A stretch of 64,000 bases of DNA. Source: Minisyncoccota bacterium (GTDB lineage Bacteria > Patescibacteriota > Minisyncoccia > Phycocordibacterales > UBA9973). Under the pieces are notes generated by a model, which saw only the letters and a program-made list of their open reading frames with translations, did not search any database and was not told the DNA's origin. The translations under genes were made by a program, and so were the position numbers. The DNA lies in NCBI GenBank assembly GCA_017991515.1, contig JAGOQI010000001.1, positions 41,641 to 105,640 on the forward strand. The letters are read 5' to 3'. The stretch's first letter is position 1. Each line of letters opens with the position of its first letter. Of the stretch, positions 6,854 through 59,063 are shown one piece after another.

Positions 6854-8128
6854 ATGCAATCAACAGTTACATCCTCGTACATCTTTAGCCAGATAGGTGT
6901 TTTCATAGTCTTACCAATACTTGTAGTAATGGCTTGGAATTTATGGCTCAGTTATATTCAAACTGTTTTTTTAAAAAGTATCAAATGGAAACTTATTGAA
7001 ATAAAACCACCAAAAGATGTTTTCAAATCTCCACTTGCTATGGAGCTTATGTTGAACTCTCTGTACCAAACAGGAGGAACTGGAAATTGGTTTGATAAAC
7101 ACTGGAAAGGAAATGTTAGAAATTATTTTTCTCTAGAAATAGTTTCAACAGAAGGAAGTATTCACTTTTATATACGGACAAGTGAGAAGTTTAGAAAAAT
7201 AATAGAATCCCAAATTTATGCTCAGTATCCCCAAGCTGAGGTTTTTGAAGTAGAAGATTATGCGACTAAAATACCAGATGTTAAAAAAGATGGACCAACA
7301 TCTCTATGGGGTTGCAACTTTGTATTAACAAAAGACGATCCTTATCCAATAAAAACTTATATAGACTACGGGCTAGATAAAGCGGTAGGGTCTTTAGAGG
7401 AAGAAGAGAGAGTTGACCCTATAACTCCAATGCTTGAATTTATGGGTTCTATTGGTATAGGAGAACATATTTGGTTTCAAATAAATGTTAGAGCGGCAAC
7501 TGATAGATTTTCTATAAAGAAAGATGGTAAAGTAGAGGAAGGGAAGAAGTGGACAGAAAAATCTAAAGAGCTTATAAAAGAGCTTAACGATAAACTCAAG
7601 GAGAAAGAAAAAGATGCTGAGGGTAAAACTACAACTTCTACTCGTAGGGCTACTAAGGGAGAACAAAATGTTATTGAAGGAATAGAGCGAAATGCTAATA
7701 AGTTTGGTTTTGATGCCTCTATCAGAGCTATTTATGTGACTGATAGTGAACATTTTGACCCGAACCGCATTGGTGGACTTACTGGTATGATTCGTCAGTA
7801 CAATACAGGGGACTACAACTCTTTCAAACCAAGTGGTACAACTAGCTTTGATTTTCCATGGCAAGATGTTTTTGGTAATAGAATTATAAAAAAGAAAAAA
7901 CACATCCTTTCTGATTATAAAGATAGGTCTGCTTTCTATGGAAGCTTTAATTTCAAAAAGATCAAAAAGTATTTTACTCATCCGAATAAAAGCGGTGACA
8001 CTCCTTTTATTCTTTCGACAGAAGAGCTGGCTACTATATTCCACCTTCCAGGTCGTGTATCAGAAACTCCTACATTTGCTCGTATCGAATCTAAGAAAGC
8101 TGAGCCTCCAGTAAACCTACCTATATAA
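6854..8128 (+). CDS. Hypothetical membrane-anchored protein (424 aa) with Lys/Glu-rich central linker
   Basis: One N-terminal TM helix; intact long ORF; family not recognised. Confidence 0.45.
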   Translation: MQSTVTSSYIFSQIGVFIVLPILVVMAWNLWLSYIQTVFLKSIKWKLIEIKPPKDVFKSPLAMELMLNSLYQTGGTGNWFDKHWKGNVRNYFSLEIVSTEGSIHFYIRTSEKFRKIIESQIYAQYPQAEVFEVEDYATKIPDVKKDGPTSLWGCNFVLTKDDPYPIKTYIDYGLDKAVGSLEEEERVDPITPMLEFMGSIGIGEHIWFQINVRAATDRFSIKKDGKVEEGKKWTEKSKELIKELNDKLKEKEKDAEGKTTTSTRRATKGEQNVIEGIERNANKFGFDASIRAIYVTDSEHFDPNRIGGLTGMIRQYNTGDYNSFKPSGTTSFDFPWQDVFGNRIIKKKKHILSDYKDRSAFYGSFNFKKIKKYFTHPNKSGDTPFILSTEELATIFHLPGRVSETPTFARIESKKAEPPVNLPI

Positions 8129-11966: not shown

Positions 11967-13715
11967 ATGACATCTAGTGAGATAAGGAGTAGATTTTTAG
12001 AATTTTTTGCCAAGCGAGGACATGCTGTGCTTCCAAGTGTCTCTCTAGTCCCTAAAAATGACCCTTCTGTGCTTTTTAATACTGCGGGTATGCAGCCACT
12101 TGTGCCATATCTTATGGGGCAACCACATCCATCTGGGAATAAATTAGCTAGTTGTCAGAAATGTGTTAGGACAGGTGATATAGATGAAATAGGTGATAGT
12201 AGGCATTTAACATTTTTTGAAATGCTTGGTAACTGGTCACTAGGAGACTACTTCAAAGAAGAAGCTATCGGCTGGAGCTATGAATTTTTAACTTCAAAAG
12301 AAGAAGGTTTGGGATTAGATCCAGCTCGCCTTTATATAACAGTTTTTGAAGGAGATGAAGACGCACCTCGCGATACAGAAGCAGTAGAGATTTGGAAAAA
12401 ATTTATTCCAGAGAACCGTATTTATTTTCTACCAAAAGAAAATAACTGGTGGAGTCCAGGAGATAATGGCCCATGTGGTCCTGATACTGAAATGTTTTAT
12501 GATACGACCGAGCAAGGCTTGGGAGATTTGTCACATGAACAATTTGTAACAGCAGATGAAAACGGTCAAGTTGTGGAGATTTGGAACGATGTTTTCATGG
12601 AATATGAAAAACGAGATGGCAAAGTAATAGGGAAATTGTCACAAAAAAATGTTGACACAGGGAGCGGACTTGAGCGCATATCTATGATTGTTCAAGGAAA
12701 AGATAATGTTTATGAAGCAGATATGTTTAAAACTGTTATGGATTTTATTTATACCAACACTCGCAAACCTTATGATTTAAAATCTGCCAGAATTATTGCT
12801 GATCATATTCGTACTGCGACTTTTCTTATTGCCGATGGAGTCACTCCAAGCAATAAAGACCAAGGTTATATCCTAAGACGCCTTATTCGTAGAGCGGTTG
12901 TTCAGGCTGATATCTTAGGGTTGACACATGGAGTTTTGGTTACTGTCAGAGGTTTCTTTGCTTCACAATACAAAGACCAATACCCAGAACTCGAAGGTGG
13001 GCTAGGTATTCAAAACGATATTTTTAAAAATGAATTAGAAAAATTTCAAAAAACTCTTGAGCAAGGACTAAAAGAATTTGAAAAAGGTACTGATCCATTT
13101 ATTTTAGCTACAACTTATGGTTTTCCTATTGAAGTCACTGAAGAAATTGCTAAAGCTCAAGGTTTAAATATAGATAGAGAATCTTTTGATAAACAAATGA
13201 AGGCTCATCAAGACGCATCTCGCTCTGGAGCAGAACAAAAGTTCAAAGGTGGACTTGCAAATACTAGCGAACAAACAACTCGTCTTCATACTGCGCATCA
13301 CTTACTTTTAAAAGCATTGCAAGAAGTAGTTAGCCCTGATATTCATCAAAAAGGCTCAAATATCACTGAGGAACGACTGCGTATAGACTTTAACTTTGAT
13401 AGAAAGCTGACAGATGAAGAGAAAACTTTAGTTGAAAACAAGGTGAACGAATGGATATCTCAAGATTTGAAAGTTGTTAAAAAAGATATGCCTAGAGCTG
13501 AGGCTGAAACTATTGGAGCTGAAATGGAATTTGGAGTTAAATATCCTGACCTTGTATCTGTTTATTTTATAGAAGATGCAGATGGTAATGTTATTTCAAA
13601 AGAATTCTGTGGTGGCCCGCATGTCCAAAGTATTGGCTCTCTAGGAGAATTCAAAATTCAAAAAGAAGAAGCTTCTTCTGCAGGAGTTAGGCGTATTAAG
13701 GCAGTTTTAATTTAA
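11967..13715 (+). CDS. alaS: Alanine--tRNA ligase, short form lacking C-Ala domain
   Basis: Class II AlaRS catalytic core plus editing domain HxxxH (HTAHHLL); only 582 aa. Confidence 0.85.
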   Translation: MTSSEIRSRFLEFFAKRGHAVLPSVSLVPKNDPSVLFNTAGMQPLVPYLMGQPHPSGNKLASCQKCVRTGDIDEIGDSRHLTFFEMLGNWSLGDYFKEEAIGWSYEFLTSKEEGLGLDPARLYITVFEGDEDAPRDTEAVEIWKKFIPENRIYFLPKENNWWSPGDNGPCGPDTEMFYDTTEQGLGDLSHEQFVTADENGQVVEIWNDVFMEYEKRDGKVIGKLSQKNVDTGSGLERISMIVQGKDNVYEADMFKTVMDFIYTNTRKPYDLKSARIIADHIRTATFLIADGVTPSNKDQGYILRRLIRRAVVQADILGLTHGVLVTVRGFFASQYKDQYPELEGGLGIQNDIFKNELEKFQKTLEQGLKEFEKGTDPFILATTYGFPIEVTEEIAKAQGLNIDRESFDKQMKAHQDASRSGAEQKFKGGLANTSEQTTRLHTAHHLLLKALQEVVSPDIHQKGSNITEERLRIDFNFDRKLTDEEKTLVENKVNEWISQDLKVVKKDMPRAEAETIGAEMEFGVKYPDLVSVYFIEDADGNVISKEFCGGPHVQSIGSLGEFKIQKEEASSAGVRRIKAVLI

Positions 13716-13769
13716 CTTTATAAACTTTTTACTTTATAACTTTCAACTTACTGCTATAATATAAACACA

Positions 13770-14930
13770 ATGCCGAAATCAAAAGGACATAGTTTGCCTA
13801 TTGCAGTATTTGATATTAGTTCAAGTTCTGTAGCTGGCGCACATGCAATAGTAAACAAAGAAAAGTCTTCTATTCTTGCAAGTACAAGGCTATTTTCTGT
13901 GCCTCAAGAAGATTTAAATGTAGAAAGATATATAAATGAAACAATAGAGCAATTAGACAAAGTAATATCCATTTTAAAAAAAGCTGACAACCATACTCCT
14001 TCTATTGTTCAGGTTCTTTTGGCATCACCATGGTTTATTTCTCAAACTAGAACAATTATTTACAACAAAGATAGTGGTTTTGTTTGTAGTGAAAAACTTA
14101 TAAACTCACTTATTGATAAAGAAGTTGCTTACATCATAAAAAATGATATAGAGAAATTTGGCAACTTAGGTAAAGACGCCATTATTATCGAGAAACAAAT
14201 ATCTCAAGTAAAGTTAAACGGGTATACAACCTCTAAGCCTTTTGGTAAAAAAACTAAAAATCTAGAGCTCTTTTTGGTTATAACTGTTTCTCCGAAATTT
14301 ATTATAGATAAAATAAAAGACCAACTTCTCAAAAACTACGCTTCCTCTAGTATCAAGTTTACAACAAGTCCTTACGCGACTTTTGTTGTAGCTAGAGATT
14401 TCTTGCAAGCTCAAGAAGAAATAATGTTATTAGATATTGGCGAAGAGGTGACGGATATGGCTCTGGTAAAAAATAATATTTTTCTTTACCAACATTCTTT
14501 TCCTGTGGGACTGTATAAGTTTTATAGAGATATAACTAAAGATGGTAAAACTAGTCTGACAGAGGCAAAAGCATTGGTAGAATCCTTTAGGCTAGGTAAA
14601 CTTAGTGCCAATATGACAAGTAATGTTCAAAAATCCTTAGACGAATTCAGTCAAACTTGGCAAAAATCCTTTCAGGAAATGATAGATAGTAGTCAAGAGA
14701 GTATAAAAATACCAGAATCTATATATTTTGTTTGTGATCCTAGGTTTAACTCTTTCTTTGAAGGCCTCCTAAAACAAGATATTTTTTTACAACATGCCAC
14801 TGGTTCAACTGATCTAAATCCAGTAGCCATAACATCACAATTATTATCTTCACATATTTCTTCACTTGATTCTGAAAAAATAGATGAAACTATTTCTATA
14901 GCTACATTATTTTCTTCTCGCATCTTGTAG
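13770..14930 (+). CDS. Hypothetical protein, possible actin-like ATPase fold (PilM/FtsA-like)
   Basis: IAVFDISSSSVAGAHAIV and later LLDIGEEVTDMALV resemble phosphate-1 and adenosine motifs of PilM/FtsA-like proteins; weak. Confidence 0.3.
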   Translation: MPKSKGHSLPIAVFDISSSSVAGAHAIVNKEKSSILASTRLFSVPQEDLNVERYINETIEQLDKVISILKKADNHTPSIVQVLLASPWFISQTRTIIYNKDSGFVCSEKLINSLIDKEVAYIIKNDIEKFGNLGKDAIIIEKQISQVKLNGYTTSKPFGKKTKNLELFLVITVSPKFIIDKIKDQLLKNYASSSIKFTTSPYATFVVARDFLQAQEEIMLLDIGEEVTDMALVKNNIFLYQHSFPVGLYKFYRDITKDGKTSLTEAKALVESFRLGKLSANMTSNVQKSLDEFSQTWQKSFQEMIDSSQESIKIPESIYFVCDPRFNSFFEGLLKQDIFLQHATGSTDLNPVAITSQLLSSHISSLDSEKIDETISIATLFSSRIL

Positions 14931-14946
14931 TACAATTAAGTCATAA

Positions 14947-16188
14947 ATGAAACTTTATGATGTTATAGTAAAAGATTCTCCAAAAAATAAATCTCAAGAA
15001 GAGAGTGAGAGAGTATTTGTCCCCACGGAAATTCCTACAAAAAAGAGAAAACCTATTTTAATTTTACTTTTAACAGTGGTAGGTATAGTTGGTGTCTATA
15101 TCGCTGGTGTGTATTTAAATCGTGCAACAATAACAATTGTAGAGAGGACTGTTCCATTTTCTTTAGAAGGAAACATTATAGAATTAACACATGAGACGAA
15201 AAGTGATACTGAGAGACTATCGTTTCAAACTATGACTGTTACCAGTGAAATAAAAAGAGAGGTTTTTGGATCAGAACTAAAAGAGGTAACAGGGAAAGCT
15301 AAAGGTTCAGTAGTTTTCTTTAATGAATACTCAAAAAGCAAAGAAACTATAAAAAGTGGTACTAAACTAGTGGCAACAAATGGAAAAGTATATACAACCC
15401 AACAAACTATTACCATCCCTGGTTATACACTCGATAGTAAAAATAAGAAAGTCCCGGGAACTTCTGAAAGTGTCTCTATCATAGCTTCGAGTACAGGCTC
15501 TTCTTATAACTCTGAGGGAACATCATTTTCTATATCAGGATTTAGTGGTTCTAAAAAAACCCAAATAACGGCTAGGTCTATAGGTAAATTAGAAGGAGGG
15601 GATTCAGGTATGAGATATACAGTTTCAGATGCTGAGAGGCCTGCAATACTTGAATCTCTTAAAACACAGTTGAACGAAAGGCTTCGTAGAGAAACTAGAG
15701 CTCAAATACCAGAGCACTTAATAACTTATCCTGATTTACAATTTATATCTATTGACCCTGATAGCTTAAAATTAGAAGGAGAAGGTATAAAGTTTACCTC
15801 TGCAATAAAAGGTACTTTAACTTCTTATCTTATTCCAATAAAATTATTTGAATCAGCTATAGCTAAAGAGGTGCTAAGTGATCACTCTTATACAAATGTT
15901 TCTATACCAAACATAGCTTCACTGGATGTAGTTCCAGAAAGTTCTATTCCGACAAATATTAAAACTCCTCCAGAATCTATATCTATCAATGTTTCAGGCG
16001 ACGGCACTCTTATAACTAAAGTTTCTATCCAAGACATAAAAGAAATATTACTGGGTTCACCTAGATCTTCTTTTGATACAAAAATATCTAGTTTTAAAGA
16101 GATTTCTTCTGCAAAATTTAAGATGTTTCCTTTTTGGTCACCCTTTTTCCCAAAACAAGACCGCTATATAAAGGTTAATATCAAATAA
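14947..16188 (+). CDS. Hypothetical membrane-anchored Ser/Thr-rich protein (413 aa)
   Basis: Single N-terminal TM helix then long extracytoplasmic region; adjacent to actin-like gene. Confidence 0.4.
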   Translation: MKLYDVIVKDSPKNKSQEESERVFVPTEIPTKKRKPILILLLTVVGIVGVYIAGVYLNRATITIVERTVPFSLEGNIIELTHETKSDTERLSFQTMTVTSEIKREVFGSELKEVTGKAKGSVVFFNEYSKSKETIKSGTKLVATNGKVYTTQQTITIPGYTLDSKNKKVPGTSESVSIIASSTGSSYNSEGTSFSISGFSGSKKTQITARSIGKLEGGDSGMRYTVSDAERPAILESLKTQLNERLRRETRAQIPEHLITYPDLQFISIDPDSLKLEGEGIKFTSAIKGTLTSYLIPIKLFESAIAKEVLSDHSYTNVSIPNIASLDVVPESSIPTNIKTPPESISINVSGDGTLITKVSIQDIKEILLGSPRSSFDTKISSFKEISSAKFKMFPFWSPFFPKQDRYIKVNIK

Positions 16189-21417: not shown

Positions 21418-23037
21418 ATGACAACACAACTACAACAAAGAACTGTCAAGGAAGTTGTACAACAGTATTCTAGTCTATATGGACTACAAGAGTCGAAAGC
21501 TTTTTTATTTTTAGTTATTGAAAAGTATTTTTCAGATAATGATTTAAATAGTATAGATATTGAAGAGGCAATTGTTGATGGTAGTGATGATTGTGGTATT
21601 GATGCAATTGTTATTGATGATTATGGAGACCAACGACCTAATGTATACTTTTTTCAATCTAAATTTTATCAATCCGAAGATGCTTTTGAAAAAAATTTTG
21701 AAGGAGAAGCATTAGACAAAATAAAAAGCTCTATAAACGATTTTGTTTTACAAGGAAAGATAAACAAAAAATATCAAAATACTAGGTTAGTAGACAAACT
21801 TCAATCAGTTAAAAACTTAGGATCTAGAAATCCTCTATACACAATTGTGCTTTGTTCTAATTCAAAAGAACCAACAGATATTGCAAAATCAAGACTTGAA
21901 GAATTTATTACCGAAACAAACAACAGTGCAGCCGGTGAGTATATTTCTATTGAATATCTTCACCTAGACCGAATAACTAAAGAGTTAATCGCACCTCAAC
22001 AACAAAGATTGATTGATATAAACCTACAAACTTCTGGAAAGTTCCTAACTGAAGATACTGGAAATGTTCGATTATTTGTTGGGGCTGTAGAAGCACAGAT
22101 TCTAGCAAGTCTTGTAGAGCAATATGGTAATGATTTGTTTGAGAAAAATGTTAGAGGATTTTTGGGGTCAAATAGTTTAAATAAAAATATTATTCGTACA
22201 GCAACAACAGAACAAAGCCCTTACTTTGTATACATGAATAATGGTATAACTTTAACATGTGAAAGATTTACACATTCTCCAACATCTAACTCTCCATTAC
22301 TAGAAATAAAAAACGCTCAAATTGTTAACGGTCAACAAACAGTTAGATCTTTACACCAAGCAAGTAAATCAGATGAATTAAAACCCGATGTGAAAGTTTT
22401 AATAAGAATAGTAGAGACTACCAACGCCGACTTGTTAAATCAGATAATTGAAGCAACAAATAGTCAAACAAAAGTTACTTCTAGAGATTTACATTCAAAC
22501 GATGAAGTACAAAGACTTATAGAGGAGCATCTAAAAACAAAAGGTTTTTTCTATGAGGCTAGGAAAAATAAATATAAAGGTAAGGATGTATCAAAAAGGG
22601 TTGATGCTGAGATCGCAGCACAGTCTTATTATTCAATTTTTTTTGAACAACCAGCTATAGCTAAGGATAAGAAAAAACTATTATTTGGTGATAAGTACGA
22701 TGAATTGTTTAATCAATACACAAAATCTGAAGATATACTTTACAGTTTTAAACTACTAAGAACTGTTCAAAAATTAAATAATCAAGATAAATATACTAAA
22801 TTTACATTTCTAAACGATGCGACTTTACATATTATTACTTTAATGCAAAAAATATCTGGCAAATTTGATTTTGATAATGACGAAGACATAACGACTAGTT
22901 ATGAAAGGGTCTTAAAAGCATTAAAAATAGTTGTTGATGAAAGAGCAAAAGAAGAGGGTGATAAGTACGAACATAGGAGAACATTTAAAGACCCAGAAAC
23001 ATACGGTAGGGTTGTAGAGGTTTTATTAAAAAAATAA
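21418..23037 (+). CDS. AIPR-family (abortive-infection phage-resistance) protein-like
   Basis: N-terminal region …EAIVDGSDDCGIDAIVIDD…VYFFQSKFY… matches, from memory, the AIPR pattern (D-G-x-D-D-x-G-I-D-A … Q-S-K-Y); 539 aa; inserted between grpE and dnaK. Confidence 0.5.
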   Translation: MTTQLQQRTVKEVVQQYSSLYGLQESKAFLFLVIEKYFSDNDLNSIDIEEAIVDGSDDCGIDAIVIDDYGDQRPNVYFFQSKFYQSEDAFEKNFEGEALDKIKSSINDFVLQGKINKKYQNTRLVDKLQSVKNLGSRNPLYTIVLCSNSKEPTDIAKSRLEEFITETNNSAAGEYISIEYLHLDRITKELIAPQQQRLIDINLQTSGKFLTEDTGNVRLFVGAVEAQILASLVEQYGNDLFEKNVRGFLGSNSLNKNIIRTATTEQSPYFVYMNNGITLTCERFTHSPTSNSPLLEIKNAQIVNGQQTVRSLHQASKSDELKPDVKVLIRIVETTNADLLNQIIEATNSQTKVTSRDLHSNDEVQRLIEEHLKTKGFFYEARKNKYKGKDVSKRVDAEIAAQSYYSIFFEQPAIAKDKKKLLFGDKYDELFNQYTKSEDILYSFKLLRTVQKLNNQDKYTKFTFLNDATLHIITLMQKISGKFDFDNDEDITTSYERVLKALKIVVDERAKEEGDKYEHRRTFKDPETYGRVVEVLLKK

Positions 23038-25815: not shown

Positions 25816-26586
25816 ATGACTATACTAAACTCCGAAAAGTATAGCGTTGTCTCATTTGATCTCGACGGTACTATAACTGAAAGTCGACAACCCATAGAGC
25901 CCTACATGGTAAATCTTTTAAATAAGCTCACTGAAAAAGTGTTGGTTGTTATTATATCTGGAAGTTCATTTAAAAATCTTTTAAACCAATTAGATCTATT
26001 TCTAAATCAAGAAAATAAAGAAATATTTAAAAACATACTTCTAATGCCAGCTAATGGTAGCGAGACTTATATCTATAAAACTACAAATTGGGAGATTTCT
26101 GATTCTGAAACTATGGGGAATGAAACTAAGAGTAAAATTATTGAAGTTTTAGAAAAATTAATAGATTCAAAAAATTTTAATATTCCAGAGATGGAAGTAG
26201 GCACTAAAATTGAAGATAGAGGAACTCAAATATCTTTTGCAGCACTTGGTATAGATGCTTCGATAGAAGAGAAAAAACTTTGGGACCACGATCAAGAGAA
26301 AAGAAAAAAGATAGTAAACTTTATAAAGCCACTACTTCCTGAAACTGACATTTTTATTGCTGGAACTACAACAATAGATATTTTACCGAAAGGAATAACA
26401 AAAGGAGTAATGTTAAGAAAAATGTTATCAAAAAGAACTCTCCTTGATACTGACTTACTATTTATTGGGGATGCACTATTTGAAGGAGGGAATGACTACG
26501 AAGTAAAAAAGGAGGGATTTAATACCATTTCAACAACAGGACCAAAAGAGACAGCAAAGATTATAGAAAGTATCTTAGAGAAGTAA
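25816..26586 (+). CDS. HAD-superfamily (IIB/Cof-like) sugar-phosphatase
   Basis: Motif I FDLDGTIT at N-terminus; motif IV-like FIGDALFEGGNDYEV near C-terminus. Confidence 0.55.
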   Translation: MTILNSEKYSVVSFDLDGTITESRQPIEPYMVNLLNKLTEKVLVVIISGSSFKNLLNQLDLFLNQENKEIFKNILLMPANGSETYIYKTTNWEISDSETMGNETKSKIIEVLEKLIDSKNFNIPEMEVGTKIEDRGTQISFAALGIDASIEEKKLWDHDQEKRKKIVNFIKPLLPETDIFIAGTTTIDILPKGITKGVMLRKMLSKRTLLDTDLLFIGDALFEGGNDYEVKKEGFNTISTTGPKETAKIIESILEK

Positions 26587-26588
26587 GA

Positions 26589-28262
26589 CTACTTATACTT
26601 GTGGTCGTGTTTATTATTTAATATTGGTATATAGCATTTATCTGTATATTCTTTCATAACCCTATTGGTTGAAAAATGTTCCTCTATAAGAGACCTAGAA
26701 TTTTTCATACGAGATAGCCATTTAGAATTACCTTGATCAAGAATATGACTATAATACATAGGCAAGATTTCTTCTTCAGTTATATCAAGCATTTTTTTAG
26801 ATAAATTTTCTGATTCATTTAAGACCCAGCCACAATCATTAACATCAACTTCAGCAATCCATCCATCTTTTGTAGAAAATGGAAGAACTCCATTTAATGC
26901 GGCCTTCATTCCGCTTGTACCACACGCCTCTCTACCTATCTCGGGAGTATTAAGCCATACATCACAACCAGCGACCATCAAAGTAGCTATATCGATATTA
27001 TAATGTGGCAAGAAAACAGCAACACCAGAAAGCTTTTCACTTATAATATTTTTGAGCTGTGCTAATAACTCATTATGGTGAACATTATTTGTTGGTCCTG
27101 AAAAAACAATTCTAAAAGGTTTATCACTATTTTGAGCTAATGCTACAAATCTTTCGACATCTTGAATAAAAGCAAGAGGTTGTTTGTATGGAACCATACG
27201 ACGCCCCCAACCAAAAAGTAATGTGTTTTCATCCCAAAGTTCTCCAGTTTCTTCTTTTATATATTGTAATAATTTCTTTTTATTTTCTTGGTGCAATCCC
27301 CATATATTTATACTGTCACTAATTTTGTCCCATCTAGGAATATAAATACCGTTAGTAATATTATCCATTTTATATTCAGGCCAAACATTTTGAGCTTCTT
27401 TGCCATGAAGAATACTGACAGAATTAGCTATAGAAGAAAATCTAAAAGAAAACATAGTCATTGAAAATAGTTTCGGATCATCTGTTATACCCATAGATAT
27501 AATCTCGTCAGTCGTAACACATATCTCTTTTGCATAACCATCTAATGCTTTAGCAATACTATCAACAGCAAAAATCTCTTGCCCAGCAGCAACCAATGTG
27601 TGATTGGTAAACAAAATATGTTTACTCGCATAACTACAAGCTGTACTAAAATCAACACGCTGATGTATCATTTCATGATTGACTAGTTCTAATGCCAAAA
27701 AAGCACTATGTCCTTCATTGAGGTGATAGACACTAGGATGTAACCCTAACAAATGCCTGAGAAATCGAAATCCTCCAATACCTAAAAGTATTTCTTGTTT
27801 CAAACGCAACTCTCTATCTTCTACATATAATTGCTCAGTAATAAGTCTGTCTTCAGCGGTATTTTGTTCAACATCAGTATCAAGCAAGTAAACATTAGCT
27901 CCATTTTCATTCCAGTGCCATATCTGAAAATATATTTGCCTACCACTAATAGGTATAGAGATTACAACAGGAGACTCCTTTACTGAAATAATTTTAATCT
28001 CTTTATTGCTTTCCGAATTATTGGTAATAATGTCGTTTTGTCCTTTTTTATACAAAAGACCAATAAAAACTATTGGTAGATCTTGCTCTGCAGACTCTTT
28101 CACAATATCTCCAGCTAGTATTCCTAAGCCCCCAGCATATATTGGTAGGGTAGGAGATAGTGCATATTCGGCTGAAAAATAAGCAACTGGATTTTCTTTT
28201 AGTGTTTTATAATCTTCTGTTTCTTTAAATTTTGAAGCCCATGTATCTTTGTTTGTTTGCAT
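26589..28262 (-). CDS. Alpha-glucan phosphorylase (GT35 family, short archaeal-like form)
   Basis: GGLGILAGD near N-terminus and the PLP-lysine region EACGTSGMKAALNG. Confidence 0.6.
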   Translation of the reverse strand: MQTNKDTWASKFKETEDYKTLKENPVAYFSAEYALSPTLPIYAGGLGILAGDIVKESAEQDLPIVFIGLLYKKGQNDIITNNSESNKEIKIISVKESPVVISIPISGRQIYFQIWHWNENGANVYLLDTDVEQNTAEDRLITEQLYVEDRELRLKQEILLGIGGFRFLRHLLGLHPSVYHLNEGHSAFLALELVNHEMIHQRVDFSTACSYASKHILFTNHTLVAAGQEIFAVDSIAKALDGYAKEICVTTDEIISMGITDDPKLFSMTMFSFRFSSIANSVSILHGKEAQNVWPEYKMDNITNGIYIPRWDKISDSINIWGLHQENKKKLLQYIKEETGELWDENTLLFGWGRRMVPYKQPLAFIQDVERFVALAQNSDKPFRIVFSGPTNNVHHNELLAQLKNIISEKLSGVAVFLPHYNIDIATLMVAGCDVWLNTPEIGREACGTSGMKAALNGVLPFSTKDGWIAEVDVNDCGWVLNESENLSKKMLDITEEEILPMYYSHILDQGNSKWLSRMKNSRSLIEEHFSTNRVMKEYTDKCYIPILNNKHDHKYK

Positions 28263-28269
28263 AATTAAT

Positions 28270-29760
28270 TTATCCTCGTTGTTCTGGCTGTCCGCCTCTT
28301 ATATGTTTATATTTTTCGGTGTAACGATCAAGTGTCTCTTCGACTTCAAAATTAGGAATCTCTAAACGCAATAACTCTATAGCATGTACTGCATCATAAA
28401 TATCATTTTTTGTTTCAATTTTGTAAATTGCATCACGCCACAAAATAGCTTTTTCATATTCACTGTTAGAAGAAGCTTTTTTCTCTAATGATTTTAACAT
28501 ATCCATAAATGCTTCATATATCCCTTGTTCAACACCACCTTTTTCAAATGTCCTTTCTTTGAAAGGTATTTTTACATTGTTTTGTTGCCCTGCCATCATT
28601 TTATAAATTTTGCCGCTTCTTTTCCATTGAAATGCTGTTGAGACAATTTTTTCATATAAATCCAAAGCTTTGTTTTTATCTTCTTGGCTAACCTTAACAA
28701 TAGACCTAACTATTGATAAATTAGCAAAAGCTCCTTGTTCTATTTCTTCTAAACTCCACCATGGTTTTGCAGATGCCCACCAAAAGTGATCTGACGCTAA
28801 AGCTTGGTCTAGCATACTTCTTATTTTTTTATATTCAGGATCTGCTTCAGACATTAGTTTTACAGATTCTTGCGCCAAATTAACCAAAGACCATTGCCAA
28901 GTGTGTATTTGATTTTCTGGATCAGACCATGATAAAAACTGAATGCCATTTTCAATATCAGACTGACTAGAAGCCCAGGTTGAAGCAATAGGGACAACCT
29001 CATCTGAAACAGGGAAGCTTTCTACTAATTCTGAAATCTTAACTAATTCAAAATCAGGGGAATCAAAAATTTCAAAAAGTAATTTTTCAAGACCTGGACG
29101 ATGGTGACCAAAAGTTTCTCCATCCATAGCTGTTAACAAATATGATTTATTATCCAACTCTTCTCCAAGTGCACTAACTAAAGATTGAGCCGAACGAACC
29201 ATAGAACTCATTATAAGATTACTCGGCCTTCTTTCTCTAAAGAAAACCTTAAGATCTGTACCTTTTAATCTATGGATACCCTCATATGAAAGTTGTTCAG
29301 TCTTACCATTAAAACTAATCTCATCTAATATTATCCATTCAAATCCTAGCTCAGCTATTATTTTCCCAACCTCTTCATCATAGGCCATCTCTGGTGGGAA
29401 AAAACCTTTAGGTTGGAAATCATTTCCTAAATATTTTTGAAGAGTTAGGGTATTAATTTTTATCTGACGGATAACTTCTTCTTTAGTTAAAAATGGTAAG
29501 AGTGCATGGTACTTTGCAGTTCCAGTAATCTCTAGTCTTCCTTCGTCAACTAATTTTTTAATAATATCAATAACATCTGAGTATCCATTTTCATCTAATA
29601 ACTCAAAAAGAGCACCAGTGATATTGATAGTCATCTTAACTTTTGGATTGTTAAGCATTTCGGAGAATATTGGTCTATAACTTTGGTGTACTACCGCTTC
29701 CAAAATATCAGGCTGTTGATTTGCAGGTTGATATATATGTAAAAAGTTGGCCCATTTCAT
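28270..29760 (-). CDS. Glycoside hydrolase family 57 alpha-glucan-active enzyme (branching enzyme or amylase-like)
   Basis: N-terminal …FLHIYQP… and overall GH57-like layout; sits between glgA and the phosphorylase. Confidence 0.5.
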   Translation of the reverse strand: MKWANFLHIYQPANQQPDILEAVVHQSYRPIFSEMLNNPKVKMTINITGALFELLDENGYSDVIDIIKKLVDEGRLEITGTAKYHALLPFLTKEEVIRQIKINTLTLQKYLGNDFQPKGFFPPEMAYDEEVGKIIAELGFEWIILDEISFNGKTEQLSYEGIHRLKGTDLKVFFRERRPSNLIMSSMVRSAQSLVSALGEELDNKSYLLTAMDGETFGHHRPGLEKLLFEIFDSPDFELVKISELVESFPVSDEVVPIASTWASSQSDIENGIQFLSWSDPENQIHTWQWSLVNLAQESVKLMSEADPEYKKIRSMLDQALASDHFWWASAKPWWSLEEIEQGAFANLSIVRSIVKVSQEDKNKALDLYEKIVSTAFQWKRSGKIYKMMAGQQNNVKIPFKERTFEKGGVEQGIYEAFMDMLKSLEKKASSNSEYEKAILWRDAIYKIETKNDIYDAVHAIELLRLEIPNFEVEETLDRYTEKYKHIRGGQPEQRG

Positions 29761-29766
29761 AATGTA

Positions 29767-31224
29767 CTATTTATTAAATTGATTAAGAGCCCTTTCAAAA
29801 AGTTTTATGTATTCTTTTGCTGACTTTTCCCAAGAAAAATTTGTTCCCATAGCTCTCTTTTGTATTTCTCTCCAAACTTTTGGATACCTATATGTCTCAT
29901 AAGCCCTAACAAAAGCCCCAAACAATGCATAGTGATCATAAGCTTCAAAAACAAAACCTGTTCCAAGATTATTTTTTAAGTCGACATCTTCAACGCTATC
30001 TACTAGTCCTCCAACATGACGAACAATAGGAACAACACCGTAACGCATTGCTTCCATTTGAGTAAGACCAGATGGTTCAAACCTAGATGGTATTAATATA
30101 GCATCAGCTCCCGAGTATATAACATGGGGAAGTATGTCGTCATAAGAGAGGTGAGTAGCAACATTTTTGTATTTTTTATCCAGTTCTTCAAAGAAGGATA
30201 AGTACTTAGAATCTCCAGAACCTAAAATAACAAATTGAAAATCAAAGTTATTCAAAAGTGGTTCTACTACCTCCATAACCAAATCAAAACCTTTCTGTTC
30301 CGCCAAGCGCCCTACCATAGCAACAACAAAAGTTTCTTTGTTCTCTGGTAAGTTAAATTTTTGTTGTAAGATTTTTTTATTTTTAAGTCTTTCGTTTAAA
30401 TCTTTAGAGTCGTATTTATATTCAACATAAGGATTAGTCTCTGGATTGTAAGCATCATAATTAATACCATTTAAGATACCAAAGAGTCTGGAGCGTCTCT
30501 CTTGCAACAAAGTATCCAAGGTCTCTCCGTATTCTGGACTAGTTATTTCTCGAGCATAGTTAGGGGAGACAGTATTGATAACATCAGCATAGCGAATACC
30601 TCGACGCATAAAATTTAATTTCAAGAGCCTGGGGTCTGAAATAGATGGGATTTCTGATTGACCATCATCATAATCAAGTTCGCTAATATGGTGATAGTCG
30701 TATGTTCCTTGAAAATGAATATTGTGAATTATAAAAATACTCGCAATAGTAGAGACAATAGGGTCGTCTTTATAATTACACTTCATATAGTTGGCGATTA
30801 ATCCTCCTTGCCAATCATTTCCGATGATAATATCAGGTTTCCATCCATCTTTACTTTTTGCAAATTCAATAGCTCCACGAGCAAGCAACGCCCACCGAGA
30901 CGCGTCATCATCATAACCATAAACACTACCTCTTTTTTCATAATACTCTTCGTTCTCAAGAAAATAAGTAATTAAACCTTCTGAAGACGAATACTCTTTA
31001 ACATTACAAATAATATCTTCGTGTTCTAAATCTGGAACATGCATTTGGTTGACCTTTGTTTTAAATTCAAATTTTTCCTGATCGATAATGCCGTATTTAG
31101 GAATAAGTGTTCGAGCATCATGACCTATTTCATTTAAGGCTTTTGGTAGGGCGTATAAAACTTCTCCTAAACCACCAACCTTAACAAAAGGAGCACATTC
31201 TGATCCCACAAAAAGTATTTTCAT
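29767..31224 (-). CDS. glgA: Glycogen/starch synthase (GT5)
   Basis: MKILFVGSECAPFVKVGGLGEV… ; ORF-track N-terminal extension to 31323 overlaps the upstream cupin gene, so the internal ATG at 31224 is used. Confidence 0.75.
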   Translation of the reverse strand: MKILFVGSECAPFVKVGGLGEVLYALPKALNEIGHDARTLIPKYGIIDQEKFEFKTKVNQMHVPDLEHEDIICNVKEYSSSEGLITYFLENEEYYEKRGSVYGYDDDASRWALLARGAIEFAKSKDGWKPDIIIGNDWQGGLIANYMKCNYKDDPIVSTIASIFIIHNIHFQGTYDYHHISELDYDDGQSEIPSISDPRLLKLNFMRRGIRYADVINTVSPNYAREITSPEYGETLDTLLQERRSRLFGILNGINYDAYNPETNPYVEYKYDSKDLNERLKNKKILQQKFNLPENKETFVVAMVGRLAEQKGFDLVMEVVEPLLNNFDFQFVILGSGDSKYLSFFEELDKKYKNVATHLSYDDILPHVIYSGADAILIPSRFEPSGLTQMEAMRYGVVPIVRHVGGLVDSVEDVDLKNNLGTGFVFEAYDHYALFGAFVRAYETYRYPKVWREIQKRAMGTNFSWEKSAKEYIKLFERALNQFNK

Positions 31225-31252
31225 TTTTTTGCCTTGCTTCATAAAATTCATA

Positions 31253-31843
31253 CTAATTTTTCTCAATAATAATGTTTGGTACATTTTTATAATTAGGATT
31301 TTTAATAAAATCAGGATTACCATCTTTACTTACTACATAATAAGCAAAACCTCTATTGTCTTTAACTGGCTTATAGTCAGCATGTATTGGCCACGAAGCT
31401 TTTTCGTTTTTAGACATTGCCACAGGGCTATCATCAGATGTTACTAACCAAGACTCTCCTATATTAATAATAAGATGTCCTGATTTTGGTGGAACAGTAA
31501 TAACACTTCCTGCGCTAAAATAAATAGCTTTTATACTCTCTACTTCGTTATCGATCAGTTCTCCACTTGAAAGCTTTTTTCTTTCTTGTAAAAGCATTAT
31601 TCCTTCACCGGACAAAACTGTATAAATTTCTGGCAATTCATCTACATGATAGTGACCATAAGCCTTTATATACTCACCACCAACATTTCCACTTTCCAGT
31701 ACTGTGATATTTTTTTTCTGACTTCCACCTCGAATCATATAATAGTGAACATTTGGTCCTGAGCTTTCAGGAGACATCAAAACATCTTTCATCTCTTCAT
31801 GAGTGCGTACAGCCATGATGTCTGTCTTATGCAAAGTATCCAT
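31253..31843 (-). CDS. Cupin-type glucose-6-phosphate isomerase (archaeal cPGI-like)
   Basis: Core GEYIKAYGHYHVDELPEIYTVLSGEG plus later PPKSGHLIIN matches the metal-binding cupin PGI signature (T-x-G-H-x-H … E-x-Y … H) as recalled from Pyrococcus/Thermococcus PGI. Confidence 0.5.
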   Translation of the reverse strand: MDTLHKTDIMAVRTHEEMKDVLMSPESSGPNVHYYMIRGGSQKKNITVLESGNVGGEYIKAYGHYHVDELPEIYTVLSGEGIMLLQERKKLSSGELIDNEVESIKAIYFSAGSVITVPPKSGHLIINIGESWLVTSDDSPVAMSKNEKASWPIHADYKPVKDNRGFAYYVVSKDGNPDFIKNPNYKNVPNIIIEKN

Positions 31844-31965
31844 AGTGAATAAATTGTAACACGGGAAGCCTATATAAATTATTTATTTGAGCGATACAAA
31901 ATAGAAAAAATGTGTTATAATATGCAAATAATAAAGGTTTTTGTAACAAATATACTTATCAAAAT

Positions 31966-33048
31966 ATGTCAAAAGATTATTACAATATATTAGGAGTCGA
32001 TAAGTCAGCTTCAAAAGATGAAATAAAAAAAGCTTTTCATAAAATGGCTCATAAATATCATCCTGATAAATCTGGTGGGGATGAAGCTAAATTTAAAGAA
32101 GTAAATGAAGCTTATCAAACTCTTCATGATGATCAGAAGCGTGCTGGCTATGATCAGTTCGGTAGCGATGGACCACAAATGGGTGGCTTCGGTGGACAAT
32201 CAAGCGGCTTTGGTGGCTTTGACTTTTCTGGATTTAATCAAAGTGGTGGTTCCGGTGAAGCTTTCGAATTCGACCTAGGAGATATGTTTGGAGGGATGTT
32301 CGGTGGCGGACGACAAGCGCGCAAACCTCGAGGAAACGACTTACAAACATCTATGACTATTGATTTCAAGGATTCTATTTTTGGAATTGAAAAAGAACTC
32401 AAAGTTACCAAGCCTTCTGTTTGTAATACATGTAAGGGAGACGGTGCAACGCCTGGAACAAAGCTTGAAACTTGTAGTACTTGTAATGGTAACGGAGTAG
32501 TTCGAAATATCCAACGAACAATCCTTGGTTCTATCGCTACAAATCAAACTTGTACCAAATGTGCCGGCTCAGGAAAAATACCAAAAGACCCATGTAAAAC
32601 TTGTCGTGGAACAGGAGTCGTAAACGACACTCGCACTATCAAACTCTCTGTTCCTGCAGGTATCCAAAATGGCGAGACGCTAAGACTCTCAAGTATGGGT
32701 GAAGCTGTCCAAGGCGGACCTTCTGGAGACTTATATGTACACATCACAGTCACGCCTCACAAAACTATTGCTCGAAAAGGTGCTGACCTCTATACAAACC
32801 TAGACATCAAACTCACTGATGCATTACTTGGCGCACAATACGCCGTTGAAACTCTTGATGGTTCTATGCCTATAGCTATACCTTCTGGAACAAAAATAGG
32901 AAGCACTGTTGTACTCAAAGACAAAGGTGTACCGATAAATAAAAACAAAAGAGGGAGTTTCGTAGTAAATCTAAATATCAAACTCCCAGAAAAACTTTCA
33001 AAAGAAGCTAAAGCTATTATTGAACAGTTGAAAAACGAAGGAATATAA
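31966..33048 (+). CDS. dnaJ: Chaperone DnaJ
   Basis: J-domain HPD motif (KYHPDK), G/F-rich linker, four CxxCxGxG zinc-finger repeats. Confidence 0.9.
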   Translation: MSKDYYNILGVDKSASKDEIKKAFHKMAHKYHPDKSGGDEAKFKEVNEAYQTLHDDQKRAGYDQFGSDGPQMGGFGGQSSGFGGFDFSGFNQSGGSGEAFEFDLGDMFGGMFGGGRQARKPRGNDLQTSMTIDFKDSIFGIEKELKVTKPSVCNTCKGDGATPGTKLETCSTCNGNGVVRNIQRTILGSIATNQTCTKCAGSGKIPKDPCKTCRGTGVVNDTRTIKLSVPAGIQNGETLRLSSMGEAVQGGPSGDLYVHITVTPHKTIARKGADLYTNLDIKLTDALLGAQYAVETLDGSMPIAIPSGTKIGSTVVLKDKGVPINKNKRGSFVVNLNIKLPEKLSKEAKAIIEQLKNEGI

Positions 33049-47516: not shown

Positions 47517-47520
47517 GATG

Positions 47521-47592
47521 TGCGTGTACATGGAATCGGACCATGGACCTCCGTCTTATCAGGACGGCGTTCTACCACTGAACTATACACGC
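47521..47592 (-). tRNA. tRNA-Ile (anticodon GAU)
   Basis: Minus-strand read GCGTGTA-TA-GTTC-AGTGGTA-GAAC-G-CCGTC-CTGATAA-GACGG-AGGTC-CATGG-TCCGATT-CCATG-TACACGC-A folds as a cloverleaf (7-bp acceptor, 4-bp D, 5-bp anticodon and T stems); anticodon GAT; CCA not encoded. Confidence 0.8.
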
Positions 47593-51183: not shown

Positions 51184-51975
51184 CTACTGCATTGAAGTGT
51201 CTTCGGGATAAATATTTATCGGTATAATCTTATTAATCCCTTGGTAACTAACAGACAAAGTTGTTTCTCCTTCTTTTTTACCCCTAATAGTTAAAGATGT
51301 TCCATTTTTGCGTGTTATTTCTGCATAAGAACTGTCTGAAATTTTAAAATTAAAATCAGATGTATTTACATCTTTTTTTGTTCCATCAGAATAAACTACC
51401 TTAAAAGAAAGAGTGCTTCCTAATTCTAAATTTCTCGTATTAGTCATAATAAAGACGCTTTCTGGATAATACTCAATATCTTTTACAGAAATATTATTTG
51501 AGGCAACTAAGATTAACTTTCCTTGAGCTTTCTCTTCTTTTACGCCAGGAGAATAGATTAATTCCTGTAGTCCTATTTTTATTTCACCTATTTGGTCGGA
51601 TAAATTGCAAGTAAAAGAATGTTCACCTATTCCCTCTTCTTCATTTATCATATGAGTGCAAGACTCTGAGGGACCTATAATAATCGTTCCAAATTTTACT
51701 TGTTGAGATAGTTTATATTTAACCTCTATACTACTCCCAGATGTAAATTTTTGATTGTCTATAGGCGAAATTAGCGTAATTGATCCTGCTTTTAGTAGAG
51801 TACCTTTTTGTTCAGTCAAAGAGTCCTTACTAGTATTAACTTCTTTCGATATATCTTCTTTGTTTATATCATCAACTTTTATAATTTCCTCTGTCTTTAT
51901 CTCATTATTTTTAAGGAAATAATAACCTCCTCCTAAAATAACGACTAAACATAATCCTGCTATTACTTTTTTCAT
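51184..51975 (-). CDS. Secreted protein with C-terminal bacterial Ig-like (Big_2-like) region
   Basis: N-terminal TM/signal; C-terminal …SSYAEITRKNGTSLTIRGKKEGETTLSVSYQG… resembles Big_2 pattern. Confidence 0.4.
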   Translation of the reverse strand: MKKVIAGLCLVVILGGGYYFLKNNEIKTEEIIKVDDINKEDISKEVNTSKDSLTEQKGTLLKAGSITLISPIDNQKFTSGSSIEVKYKLSQQVKFGTIIIGPSESCTHMINEEEGIGEHSFTCNLSDQIGEIKIGLQELIYSPGVKEEKAQGKLILVASNNISVKDIEYYPESVFIMTNTRNLELGSTLSFKVVYSDGTKKDVNTSDFNFKISDSSYAEITRKNGTSLTIRGKKEGETTLSVSYQGINKIIPINIYPEDTSMQ

Positions 51976-53665: not shown

Positions 53666-54541
53666 CTATATATTATTAAAAACTTTTAGTTTTTGTAAAA
53701 CTACTTGTTTGATAGCATCTTTAGCCATAGGTAAATATTTGTATGGTGCTATTTCGTCTTTGTTTTCAACTGTCATGCTTTCTATTAAAGCATCTTTATA
53801 GGCGACACGAATCTCTGTGTTGATATGAACTATGGCGACCCCTGCTTCTATGCACGCTCTCACATCTTCATCTGTATTTCCTGAAGCGCCATGGAGAACC
53901 ATGGAAACTTTTGTCTTTTCATATATCTGCGCCACTCTATCTGGGTGAAGTGCTGGTTCCCCACTTTTAACCATACCGTGAATGTTTCCTACTGACGGAG
54001 CAAGCAAATCAATACCAGTATTATCTATAAAATATTTTGCGTCTTCTGGTTTTGTCATAGTCTCTTCGCCTGCACCTTCTGGAACATCATCGAGCATTTT
54101 TGAGGAGCTACCGATAAAACCAAGTTCTGCTTCTATCAAAACATCTTTACCGAGCTCTTTAGAAATTTTGCGTGCATAGTCCACACACTGTTTTGTTATT
54201 TTTATATTTTCTTCAAGTGGAAGTTTTACCAAATCAATAATAGCCATATCAAAACCTGCATCTATTGATTTCTTTACTGATTCAAAAGAGTAGTGATGAT
54301 CAGCGTTTAAGAAAACTGGCACTTTAGCTGTTTGTTTTAGGACACTGACAATGCCTGCTAAAACTTCAGTGCCTATGTACCCCTCCTCTCCTTCTGTTGC
54401 TCCGAGTATAATAGGAACATTTAACTCCTCTGCAGCTTCGACTATGGCATGTATTGCATCTAGATTTGAAACATTGAAATGCCCAATAGCTCTTTTCTCT
54501 TTTCTAGCTTCTTCGATATAACTTCGCAGAGTTTTTTGCAT
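53666..54541 (-). CDS. fba: Class II fructose-1,6-bisphosphate aldolase
   Basis: …GHFNVSNLDAIHAIVEAAEELNVPIILG… and metal-binding His residues in class II order. Confidence 0.8.
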   Translation of the reverse strand: MQKTLRSYIEEARKEKRAIGHFNVSNLDAIHAIVEAAEELNVPIILGATEGEEGYIGTEVLAGIVSVLKQTAKVPVFLNADHHYSFESVKKSIDAGFDMAIIDLVKLPLEENIKITKQCVDYARKISKELGKDVLIEAELGFIGSSSKMLDDVPEGAGEETMTKPEDAKYFIDNTGIDLLAPSVGNIHGMVKSGEPALHPDRVAQIYEKTKVSMVLHGASGNTDEDVRACIEAGVAIVHINTEIRVAYKDALIESMTVENKDEIAPYKYLPMAKDAIKQVVLQKLKVFNNI

Positions 54542-54590
54542 ATAATAATTGTATCACAAAGTAAAAAACCTATTATGTTATAATTATCTT

Positions 54591-55586
54591 ATGCAAAATG
54601 AACAAATAGACTTTTTAGCTATCGGTGACATTGTGACCGATGCTTTTATAAAAATTAAAGACGCTAGAGTAAGTTGTGATGTAGACGACCACAATTGTAG
54701 AATATCTCTTAGTTTCGGCGACAAAGTTCCTTATGAATCAGTAGAAGAAGTACGAGCTGTTGGTAACAGTTCTAATGCGGCTATTTCTGCCGCTCGCTTA
54801 GGGGTAAAAACTGCTTTGATGGCCAATGTTGGTAAAGATATTCATGGGGACAACTGTTTATCTGAATTACAGAAAAATAATGTCAGTACACAATACATGG
54901 GTGTTCACGATGGTATCCCGACCAACTACCACTATGTGCTTTGGTATGATGTAGATCGAACTATTTTGGTAAAACATGCACACTTCCCTACTTCATTCCC
55001 AAAAGACATGACTCCTCCAAAAATGATTTATCTTTCTTCTTTGGGAGAAGGTACAGAAGAATATCATGCACAAATATCTGACTATGTTTCTAAAAATCCA
55101 GAAATAAAATTAGTTTTTCAACCTGGAACATTTCAAATGAAAATGGGTGTAGAAAAATTAAAGGATATTTATGCTAATACAGATATATTTTTCTGTAATG
55201 TTGAAGAAGCACAAAGAATTTTGGGTAATAAAGAAACTGATATCAAAGTACTAGTTTCTTCTTTGCATGCTTTAGGTCCGAAAACTGTTTTTATAACAGA
55301 CGGCATAAAAGGAGCTTATGCTTCAGACGGAAAAGAAGTTTGGTTCATGCCTATCTATCCTCAAACGCCATTTGAAAGAACTGGTGCAGGAGATGCATTT
55401 TCATCAACAGTTTCTGCGGCATTACTTATGGGTAAGACTTTGAGCGAAGCATTATCTTGGGGTCCTATAAACTCTATGTCAGTAGTTCAATATGTTGGAG
55501 CACAAAAAGGTTTACTTACAAAAGAAAAACTTGAAGAGTATCTAAAAAATGCTCCTTCACAATACGCTCCACAACTACTTTCTTAA
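54591..55586 (+). CDS. PfkB-family carbohydrate kinase
   Basis: N-terminal GG-like region and C-terminal TGAGDAFSST anion-hole motif; ORF-track start 54549 trimmed to the in-frame ATG at 54591. Confidence 0.6.
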   Translation: MQNEQIDFLAIGDIVTDAFIKIKDARVSCDVDDHNCRISLSFGDKVPYESVEEVRAVGNSSNAAISAARLGVKTALMANVGKDIHGDNCLSELQKNNVSTQYMGVHDGIPTNYHYVLWYDVDRTILVKHAHFPTSFPKDMTPPKMIYLSSLGEGTEEYHAQISDYVSKNPEIKLVFQPGTFQMKMGVEKLKDIYANTDIFFCNVEEAQRILGNKETDIKVLVSSLHALGPKTVFITDGIKGAYASDGKEVWFMPIYPQTPFERTGAGDAFSSTVSAALLMGKTLSEALSWGPINSMSVVQYVGAQKGLLTKEKLEEYLKNAPSQYAPQLLS

Positions 55587-55610
55587 AAGTTTTAGCTATA
55601 AAAATTAAAA

Positions 55611-55638
55611 ATCCTCACACTATCGTGAGGATTTTTCA
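55611..55638. terminator. Bidirectional terminator (AATCCTCAC…GTGAGGATT)
   Basis: 9-bp perfect stem with flanking A/T runs between convergent genes. Confidence 0.65.
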
Positions 55639-55639
55639 A

Positions 55640-55987: not shown

Positions 55988-56040
55988 AACGGTATATTTT
56001 TAATCAAAATACCACAGTATTACACAGAGAGCAATTATCT

Positions 56041-57033: not shown

Positions 57034-57036
57034 ATT

Positions 57037-57918: not shown

Positions 57919-57923
57919 TTAAA

Positions 57924-58622: not shown

Positions 58623-58623
58623 C

Positions 58624-59058: not shown

Positions 59059-59063
59059 ATTAA

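Follow-up and report, generated by a model that had tools for sequence, protein, structure and literature searches.

A cupin-type phosphoglucose isomerase family protein encoded next to glycogen genes in a Minisyncoccota bacterium

The cupin gene and its family assignment

The window analyzed here is a whole stretch of 64,000 nt of DNA from a Minisyncoccota bacterium, a member of the Patescibacteria or candidate phyla radiation (CPR), a group with small genomes. On its minus strand lies a gene for a protein of the cupin-type phosphoglucose isomerase (cPGI) family, the first gene of a cluster that also contains the glycogen synthase gene glgA, a GH57 gene and an alpha-glucan phosphorylase gene. 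Since upper glycolysis is patchy in Patescibacteria, an enzyme linking hexose phosphates to storage glucan matters for the reconstruction of carbon metabolism in these episymbionts. An earlier note on this DNA had proposed a cPGI of 196 amino acids (aa) at this place, naming no strand, and had pointed to a GHYH sequence, a Glu/Tyr pair and a later His. The open reading frame (ORF) has exactly this length, and all three elements were confirmed on the DNA. The gene and the codons of its predicted metal site are listed below with the corresponding residues of the Pyrococcus furiosus phosphoglucose isomerase (PfPGI); the codon assignments come from the sequence and from alignments.

31253..31843, minus strand: cupin-type phosphoglucose isomerase (PF06560) gene, first of the cluster, ORF of 196 aa
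31646..31657, minus strand: codons G63-H64-Y65-H66, corresponding to PfPGI G87-H88-F89-H90 with its two metal-ligand histidines
31622..31630, minus strand: codons E72-I73-Y74, corresponding to PfPGI E97, which binds the metal and has been proposed as the catalytic base, and to Y99
31475..31477, minus strand: codon H123, corresponding to PfPGI H136 (the fourth metal ligand), inside P118-P119-x3-H123-x3-N127

The stop codon of the gene, as read from the DNA, is TAG, and six public contigs, NCBI GCA_020054605.1 among them, encode an identical 196-aa protein.

Every test that was run supported the assignment of the gene product to the cPGI family, in a bacterium and with the metal-binding signature intact. 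In the Pfam scan, the protein matched PF06560 with 80.4 bits (E 1.3e-22, profile positions 50-169 of 182), which is four times the gathering cut-off of 20.7 bits and 59 bits over the next family. The matches to Cupin_2, Cupin_1 and 2OG-FeII_Oxy were weak and sub-threshold, and neither the Pfam families of phosphomannose isomerases (PMIs) nor PF00342, the family of the conventional phosphoglucose isomerase (PGI), were matched at E <= 1. A phmmer search of the PDB gave significant matches solely to the cPGIs of P. furiosus and Thermococcus litoralis (E 8e-7 to 1e-5). Similarly, a profile of 40 related sequences was aligned by hhalign to PfPGI, in a sequence 100% identical to 1QXJ chain A, with 98% probability and an E-value of 1.5e-13 over residues 45-186.

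The AlphaFold2 model built from the same alignment of 40 relatives is an all-beta cupin barrel (mean pLDDT 87.4, pTM 0.85), in agreement with the double-stranded beta-helix core expected in the earlier note. The 12 best matches of this model among PDB structures, as found by Foldseek, were all cPGIs of Pyrococcus and Thermococcus (E 1.7e-12 to 8e-11, TM 0.63-0.69). The next fold, that of D-lyxose isomerase, followed at E 2e-6 with a TM of ~0.41, and other cupins were further off, so that a gap of six orders of magnitude in E-value separates the cPGIs from all other cupin structures. The best PMI structure, the Thermococcus cupin PMI 7zvm, reached an E-value of 4.8e-5 and a TMq of 0.29, compared with 1e-12 and 0.66 for the cPGIs. 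D-lyxose isomerase and membership in the PMIs were rejected as assignments because of the Foldseek gap behind the cPGIs and the missing PMI match in Pfam. The profile search and the structure prediction that had been suggested as checks thus both led to cPGIs and not to generic cupins, with the PGI residues kept, and the E-values lie well outside what chance would produce.

The Mn2+ ion of PfPGI is held by His88, His90, Glu97 and His136, and proton transfer involves His158 and Tyr152 (PMC6627849). In all alignments made, the four ligand positions are occupied by H64, H66, E72 and H123 of the cupin protein. The likeness extends beyond the metal site, as Y34, T47, E57, G63, Y74, N127 and Y157 are the equivalents of PfPGI Y52, T71, E81, G87, Y99, N140 and Y160, respectively. 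Three of these PfPGI residues, T71, G87 and Y99, are the counterparts of T63, G79 and Y95 of the A. fulgidus enzyme, reportedly mutagenesis targets in a further 2005 study by Hansen et al. Comparison of the cupin protein with its CPR relatives, PfPGI and the Sinorhizobium and Salmonella types of the family revealed invariant columns at Y34, T47, G52, G55, E57, G63, H64, H66, E72, Y74, P118, H123, N127, P152 and Y157. The core residues are present in 120 of 120 close relatives and are kept at ~93-100% in 105 distant representatives taken at 50% identity. Relative to PfPGI, the AlphaFold2 model contains two insertions of ~12 residues, an extended and well-predicted hairpin at ~88-101, which is also found in the Salmonella type, and a low-confidence loop at ~136-150.

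Distribution and divergence of the family

Relatives of the cupin protein were found by a word-indexed protein search in 2088 clusters (90% identity, E <= 0.001). The best 120 of the 2088 are 56-99% identical to the query, all have PF06560 and, where named, belong to metagenome-assembled genomes (MAGs) of Patescibacteria, Paceibacterota, Nomurabacteria or Minisyncoccia. The relatives are labelled 'glucose-6-phosphate isomerase family protein' by NCBI and 'oxalate decarboxylase/phosphoglucose isomerase-like protein (cupin superfamily)' by JGI. An exhaustive search of 50%-identity representatives yielded 595 at E <= 0.001, of which 145 also reach E <= 1e-10. The GTDB species representatives contain 416 stretches with a gene for a relative; the best 80 of the 416 are Patescibacteria-type MAGs with mixed labels. 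The PF06560 family is also present in Sinorhizobium, Rhizobium and Salmonella replicons. Together with a published survey of CPR genomes (Jaffe et al. 2020, BMC Biol 18:69, PMC7304191), these numbers contradict the statement of the earlier note that this family is rare outside Euryarchaeota.

According to that survey, three PGI forms (PF00342, TIGR02128 and the cupin form PF06560) are scattered over CPR, two or more forms occur together in ~2% of CPR genomes, and ~15 genomes, mostly of Nealsonbacteria, have the cupin form only. The PF06560 cut-off applied there for PGI is 30.2 bits, and the protein studied here, with 80.4 bits, would therefore count as a PGI in the same scheme. It is the same annotation-level entity as the CPR 'cupin-related PGI' of the survey, which is limited to presence and absence and a gene tree and gives no residue-level features, cupin-glgA-GH57-phosphorylase arrangement or biochemistry. 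A 2025 review, which is based on cultured prokaryotes, presents cPGI as an enzyme typical of archaea that reached bacteria in a few transfers of restricted extent (PMC12525153). The cPGI family and its occurrence in bacteria and in CPR are already known, and relatives of the protein are already annotated. What is added here is the residue-level check, the delimitation of a branch specific to Patescibacteria that has insertions of its own and deviates from the family signature, and the conserved arrangement of the cupin gene with glgA, GH57 and phosphorylase genes. Since standard annotation and the published CPR survey already make the identification, the gain is one of confirmation and detail and not of discovery.

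As bacterial comparison sequences we used a protein from Sinorhizobium meliloti pSymB and a 280-aa protein of Salmonella Typhimurium. In 2005, Hansen et al. reportedly described cupin PGIs from Salmonella Typhimurium and from Ensifer (Sinorhizobium) meliloti, and the two retrieved sequences are probably the proteins assayed at that time. In BLASTP comparisons, the query is 31% identical to PfPGI (54 bits), 32% to the Salmonella type (64 bits) and 30% to the Sinorhizobium type (42 bits). PfPGI itself is 30% identical to the Salmonella type and 41% to the Sinorhizobium type. The roughly equal distance of the query to the archaeal, Salmonella and Sinorhizobium types therefore sets it on a separate deep branch specific to Patescibacteria.

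With the archaeal cPGIs of P. furiosus and T. litoralis (1QXJ, 1X7N, 1X82, 1J3P) the protein shares PF06560, the cupin fold, the H/H/E/H ligands, a length of ~190 aa, the equivalents of Y52, T71, G87, Y99, N140 and Y160, and the PPx3Hx3N motif. It differs from them in sequence (~31% identity), in the two ~12-residue insertions, in a shorter N-terminus that cannot be aligned, and in coming from a mesophilic bacterium, whereas the archaeal enzymes come from hyperthermophiles. The Salmonella type has in common with the query the invariant core, the GHYH sequence, a hairpin inserted at the same position and a C-terminal N-x-x-Y-x-x-V-P, but is ~280 aa long with an extra C-terminal domain, has an 11-residue H...E spacer and is found next to ptsG, hxlB and hxlA. 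The Sinorhizobium type is nearer to the archaeal form (41% to PfPGI); it shares the invariant core with the query but not the insertions. Finally, the conventional PGI (PF00342; E. coli Pgi) and the SIS-type PGI/PMI (TIGR02128) are functional analogues with the same predicted reaction, of unrelated fold and mechanism and independent of metal; E. coli Pgi has no sequence match to the query.

Two observations on the wider family were made in passing. On the Salmonella Typhimurium plasmid pF18S004-1 (locus L005, 1105-4840), a 280-aa homologue labelled 'cytoplasmic protein' is located between a ptsG-like PTS IIBC gene and hxlB/hxlA (6-phospho-3-hexuloisomerase / 3-hexulose-6-phosphate synthase), a context unlike the glycogen one in CPR. 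Several distant relatives are very large, namely P0208 (2711 aa), P0266 (2161 aa), P0268 (1705 aa), P0261 (822 aa) and P0193 (542 aa), and carry the cPGI-like domain deep inside, for instance at residues 2217-2406 of 2711; these may be fusions or mis-joined gene models.

The glycogen gene cluster

The genes that accompany the cupin gene in the window are the following.

29767..31224 (alternative start 31251), minus strand: glgA, ADP-glucose-type glycogen/starch synthase (PF08323 and PF00534; TIGR02095 513 bits, cut-off 328)
28270..29760, minus strand: GH57 alpha-glucan-active enzyme (PF03065 122 bits; in NCBIfam, weak resemblance to the branching enzyme of Thermococcales)
26589..28262, minus strand: alpha-glucan family phosphorylase, short GT35 type (PF00343; TIGR02094 450 bits, cut-off 192)
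25816..26586, plus strand: phosphomannomutase-like (PMM-like) HAD-IIB protein (PF03332 63.7 bits, PF08282, TIGR01484)

The GH57 enzyme would have a branching-enzyme-like role, and the PMM-like HAD-IIB protein is a candidate for the phosphoglucomutase of the module, interconverting glucose-1-phosphate (G1P) and glucose-6-phosphate (G6P). Its gene abuts the phosphorylase gene on the opposite strand, and in the window the two are convergent and separate. The glgA gene lies on the same strand as the cupin gene and begins 1-29 nt past the cupin stop codon; the range arises because homology begins at MKILFVG (ATG 31224), while in public gene calls on the identical contigs the start is the ATG at 31251. 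On the same two grounds an extension of the glgA ORF to 31323, which would overlap the cupin gene, was rejected.

Scans of the region 26300-32100 were uninformative on the transcription unit: promoter-like sites for sigma-70 numbered 17, as against 25.4 in shuffled sequences, and no intrinsic terminator was found inside the cluster. Rfam and tRNA scans of the window revealed no regulatory RNA near the cluster, the sole tRNA being tRNA-Ile at 47520-47592. The window has no evident gene for the step that forms ADP-glucose. In particular, no GlgC-like NTP_transferase was found among the scanned window ORFs of at least 150 aa (a few of that size were outside the scan), and tblastn of the window with the small nucleotidyltransferase and the alpha-D-phosphohexomutase of relatives gave nothing at E <= 1. 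The adjacency to glgA noticed in the earlier note holds, on the same strand, at 1-29 nt and with linkage conserved in relatives, but its phrase that the isomerase feeds directly into glgA is inexact, since PGI yields G6P, which has to be converted to G1P and then to ADP-glucose before GlgA can act, so that two steps are skipped.

Gene neighborhoods were compared in 83 related loci within the flanks examined. A glgA gene is present in the flank in 40 of the 83 loci, and in 28 of the 51 that have at least 5 kb on both sides. It directly follows the cupin gene on the same strand in 25 loci of the 83 and lies on the opposite strand in 13, and the full trio of glgA, GH57 and phosphorylase genes was observed in 35 of the 83. 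The locus represents a clean and conserved genetic argument for the cupin enzyme as a link between hexose phosphate and glycogen; a literature search found no described cupin-glgA operon. In two relatives (L001, at 13600-15993, and L018), the PMM-like domain is fused with the phosphorylase in a single 797-aa protein, and the domain is therefore likely to handle G1P. With such a fusion, glycogen might be channelled to G6P through phosphorylase and mutase in turn.

A natural indel was observed between two relatives, L002 and the P0065 contig, which share the synteny of CCA-adding enzyme, UPF0102, cupin, Zip transporter and LysM-M23 peptidase genes. On the P0065 contig the cupin gene has been kept, and what is missing is precisely the set of nucleotidyltransferase, glgA, GH57 and phosphorylase genes. 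Retention of the cupin gene when the glycogen genes are lost, together with linkage in about half of the relatives, therefore fits a general PGI better than an accessory restricted to glycogen.

In relatives with the glgA cluster, the cupin gene is immediately preceded, in the same orientation, by a small gene similar to PF01467 cytidylyl/adenylyltransferases (135-142 aa; L002 9475-9903; L003 9523-9930 and 6570-7130; also L008-L012, L014 and L020). It adjoins the cupin gene in 10 of the 40 glgA-positive loci, compared with 2 of the 43 glgA-negative ones. The best NCBIfam likeness of its product, below the cut-off, is to RfaE domain II, a sugar-1-phosphate adenylyltransferase. As no GlgC was seen in the clusters of these relatives, the protein might make ADP-glucose.

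Proposed function, alternatives and other genes of the window

The above analysis makes it quite probable that the cupin protein is a metal-dependent isomerase of G6P and fructose-6-phosphate (F6P) that ties glycogen to metabolism at the level of F6P. The metal would be held by H64, H66, E72 and H123 inside the cupin barrel, an open-chain sugar phosphate would chelate it through O1 and O2, and E72 may act as the base for hydrogen transfer between C1 and C2, as proposed for the Pyrococcus enzyme. The mechanism of cPGI is debated between a cis-enediol and a hydride shift (PMC8378251). The cupin gene would be co-transcribed with the glgA, GH57 and phosphorylase genes, with the PMM-like HAD mutase encoded next door and plausibly performing the mutase step. 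In the direction of synthesis, the path would lead from F6P through G6P, G1P and ADP-glucose to glycogen, and in that of breakdown from glycogen through G1P and G6P to F6P. On the F6P side, it could join the aldolase, transketolase and glyceraldehyde-3-phosphate dehydrogenase (GAPDH) genes of a central-carbon cluster (53666-60745), which lies 22-29 kb from the cupin gene and represents pathways that use or supply F6P.

53666-54541: class II fructose-bisphosphate aldolase
54549-55586: PfkB-family sugar kinase, ribokinase-like but below cut-offs
57037-57918 and 56041-57033: split transketolase, N-terminal and C-terminal gene, respectively
57924-58622: ribulose-phosphate 3-epimerase
59723-60745: GAPDH

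The earlier note expected the cupin protein to replace the canonical PGI, and it would presumably be the sole PGI of this bacterium. No conventional PGI (PF00342) was detected among the scanned window ORFs of at least 150 aa, and a local tblastn check with E. coli Pgi found nothing in the window (64 kb) or in the 1.33 Mb of flanking DNA from relatives.

Several observations weigh against a PGI function of the cupin protein. The literature search found no characterised cPGI from Patescibacteria, a branch known from sequence only, and the protein is ~30% identical to any characterised or solved cPGI. The family does span such divergence, since the Salmonella type (30%) is as far from PfPGI as the query (31%). 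The NCBIfam scan gave no model that would name the protein, the best matches (E 0.035-0.08) being to unrelated families. In the hhalign alignment, the N-terminal 44 residues are shorter than those of PfPGI and cannot be aligned to it. Two signatures of the cPGIs were reportedly given by Hansen et al. in 2005, T-x3-P-x3-G-x-E-x3-T-x-G-H-x-H-x(6-11)-E-x-Y and P-P-x3-H-x3-N. The second is present in the cupin protein as P118-P119-K-S-G-H123-L-I-I-N127. The first is matched at 9 of its 11 fixed positions, with S51 in place of the proline and A61 in place of the second threonine (P75 and T85 of PfPGI), and the Glu follows the second His after 5 residues instead of 6-11. The position of P75 is filled by proline in 68 of the 105 distant representatives. 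That of T85 is filled by threonine in 95 of the same 105, and by threonine in 69 and alanine in 50 of the 120 close relatives. We regard the signature as a description of the few sequences then known and not as a definition; it appears too narrow for today's larger family.

The same holds against the assignment for the residues of proton transfer. PfPGI Y152 is replaced by W151, and the loop of H158 is two residues shorter (P-x-H154-A-D-Y), so that A155 aligns with H158, and H154, which is invariant among the relatives, stands one position off. His158 is not universal in the family, as the Sinorhizobium type has Gln there. This divergent periphery of the active site (A61, W151 and the shifted His154) might confer altered specificity or regulation.

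The same changes (A61 for T85, W151 for Y152 and the shortened H158 loop) can be read in favor of a PMI or a bifunctional PGI/PMI, which with the PMM-like mutase would make mannose-1-phosphate or nucleotide-mannose, in addition to glucose phosphates or in their place. The known PMIs, too, are cupins. Moreover, the HAD gene found beside the cluster, in the window as in many relatives, belongs to PF03332, the eukaryotic-type phosphomannomutase family, and small genes similar to sugar-phosphate nucleotidyltransferases stand beside the cupin gene in 12 relatives. However, neither Pfam nor Foldseek favors a PMI (nothing at E <= 1 in the former, and in the latter 7zvm at E 4.8e-5 and TMq 0.29), the partner genes all encode alpha-glucan enzymes, and the fusion of the PMM-like domain to phosphorylase is most simply explained by a G1P substrate. 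The characterised cPGIs are, according to Hansen et al. in 2005, reportedly highly specific for G6P and F6P. We therefore regard a PMI role as improbable.

A second alternative, that the cupin protein is an accessory copy serving the glycogen module while a conventional PGI is encoded elsewhere in the genome, would agree with the tight glgA linkage in about half of the related loci. It is made very improbable by the other half, which carry the gene with no glycogen genes nearby, by the P0065 contig, which kept the cupin gene but not the glycogen genes, and by the CPR survey (PMC7304191), in which just ~2% of the genomes combine several PGI forms. Finally, a generic His/His/Glu/His cupin (oxalate-decarboxylase-like, RmlC-like, or acting as isomerase on unphosphorylated sugars) with no more than a likeness to PGI could be suspected from the JGI naming, from the sub-threshold Cupin_2, Cupin_1 and 2OG-FeII_Oxy matches and from the occurrence of the HxH...E...H motif in many cupins, but is excluded for practical purposes by the PF06560 margin of 59 bits, by the Foldseek gap and by the invariance of the cPGI-specific equivalents of Y52, T71, G87, Y99 and Y160 outside the metal site, besides the conserved linkage to glycogen genes.

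Within the preferred reading, a G6P/F6P isomerase linked to glycogen, a more specific scheme can be drawn in which Patescibacteria possess a glycogen module lacking GlgC. The cPGI would be its entry and exit enzyme as well as the only PGI, the HAD PMM-like protein would be the phosphoglucomutase, and the RfaE-II-like nucleotidyltransferase would replace GlgC. This scheme is tentative, and we think it rather unlikely to hold in all its parts.

Several other genes of the window were noted in passing. At 21418-23037, amid housekeeping genes and just upstream of dnaK, a 539-aa AIPR (abortive-infection phage-resistance) protein is encoded (PF10592, 147 bits). Four ORFs have no Pfam family at E <= 1e-5, namely 6854-8128 (424 aa), 13770-14930 (386 aa), 14947-16188 (413 aa) and 51184-51975 (263 aa). 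A 346-aa protein encoded at 5285-6325 combines an N-terminal sigma-70 region 4 with HARE-HTH, which is unusual for a sigma-like factor.

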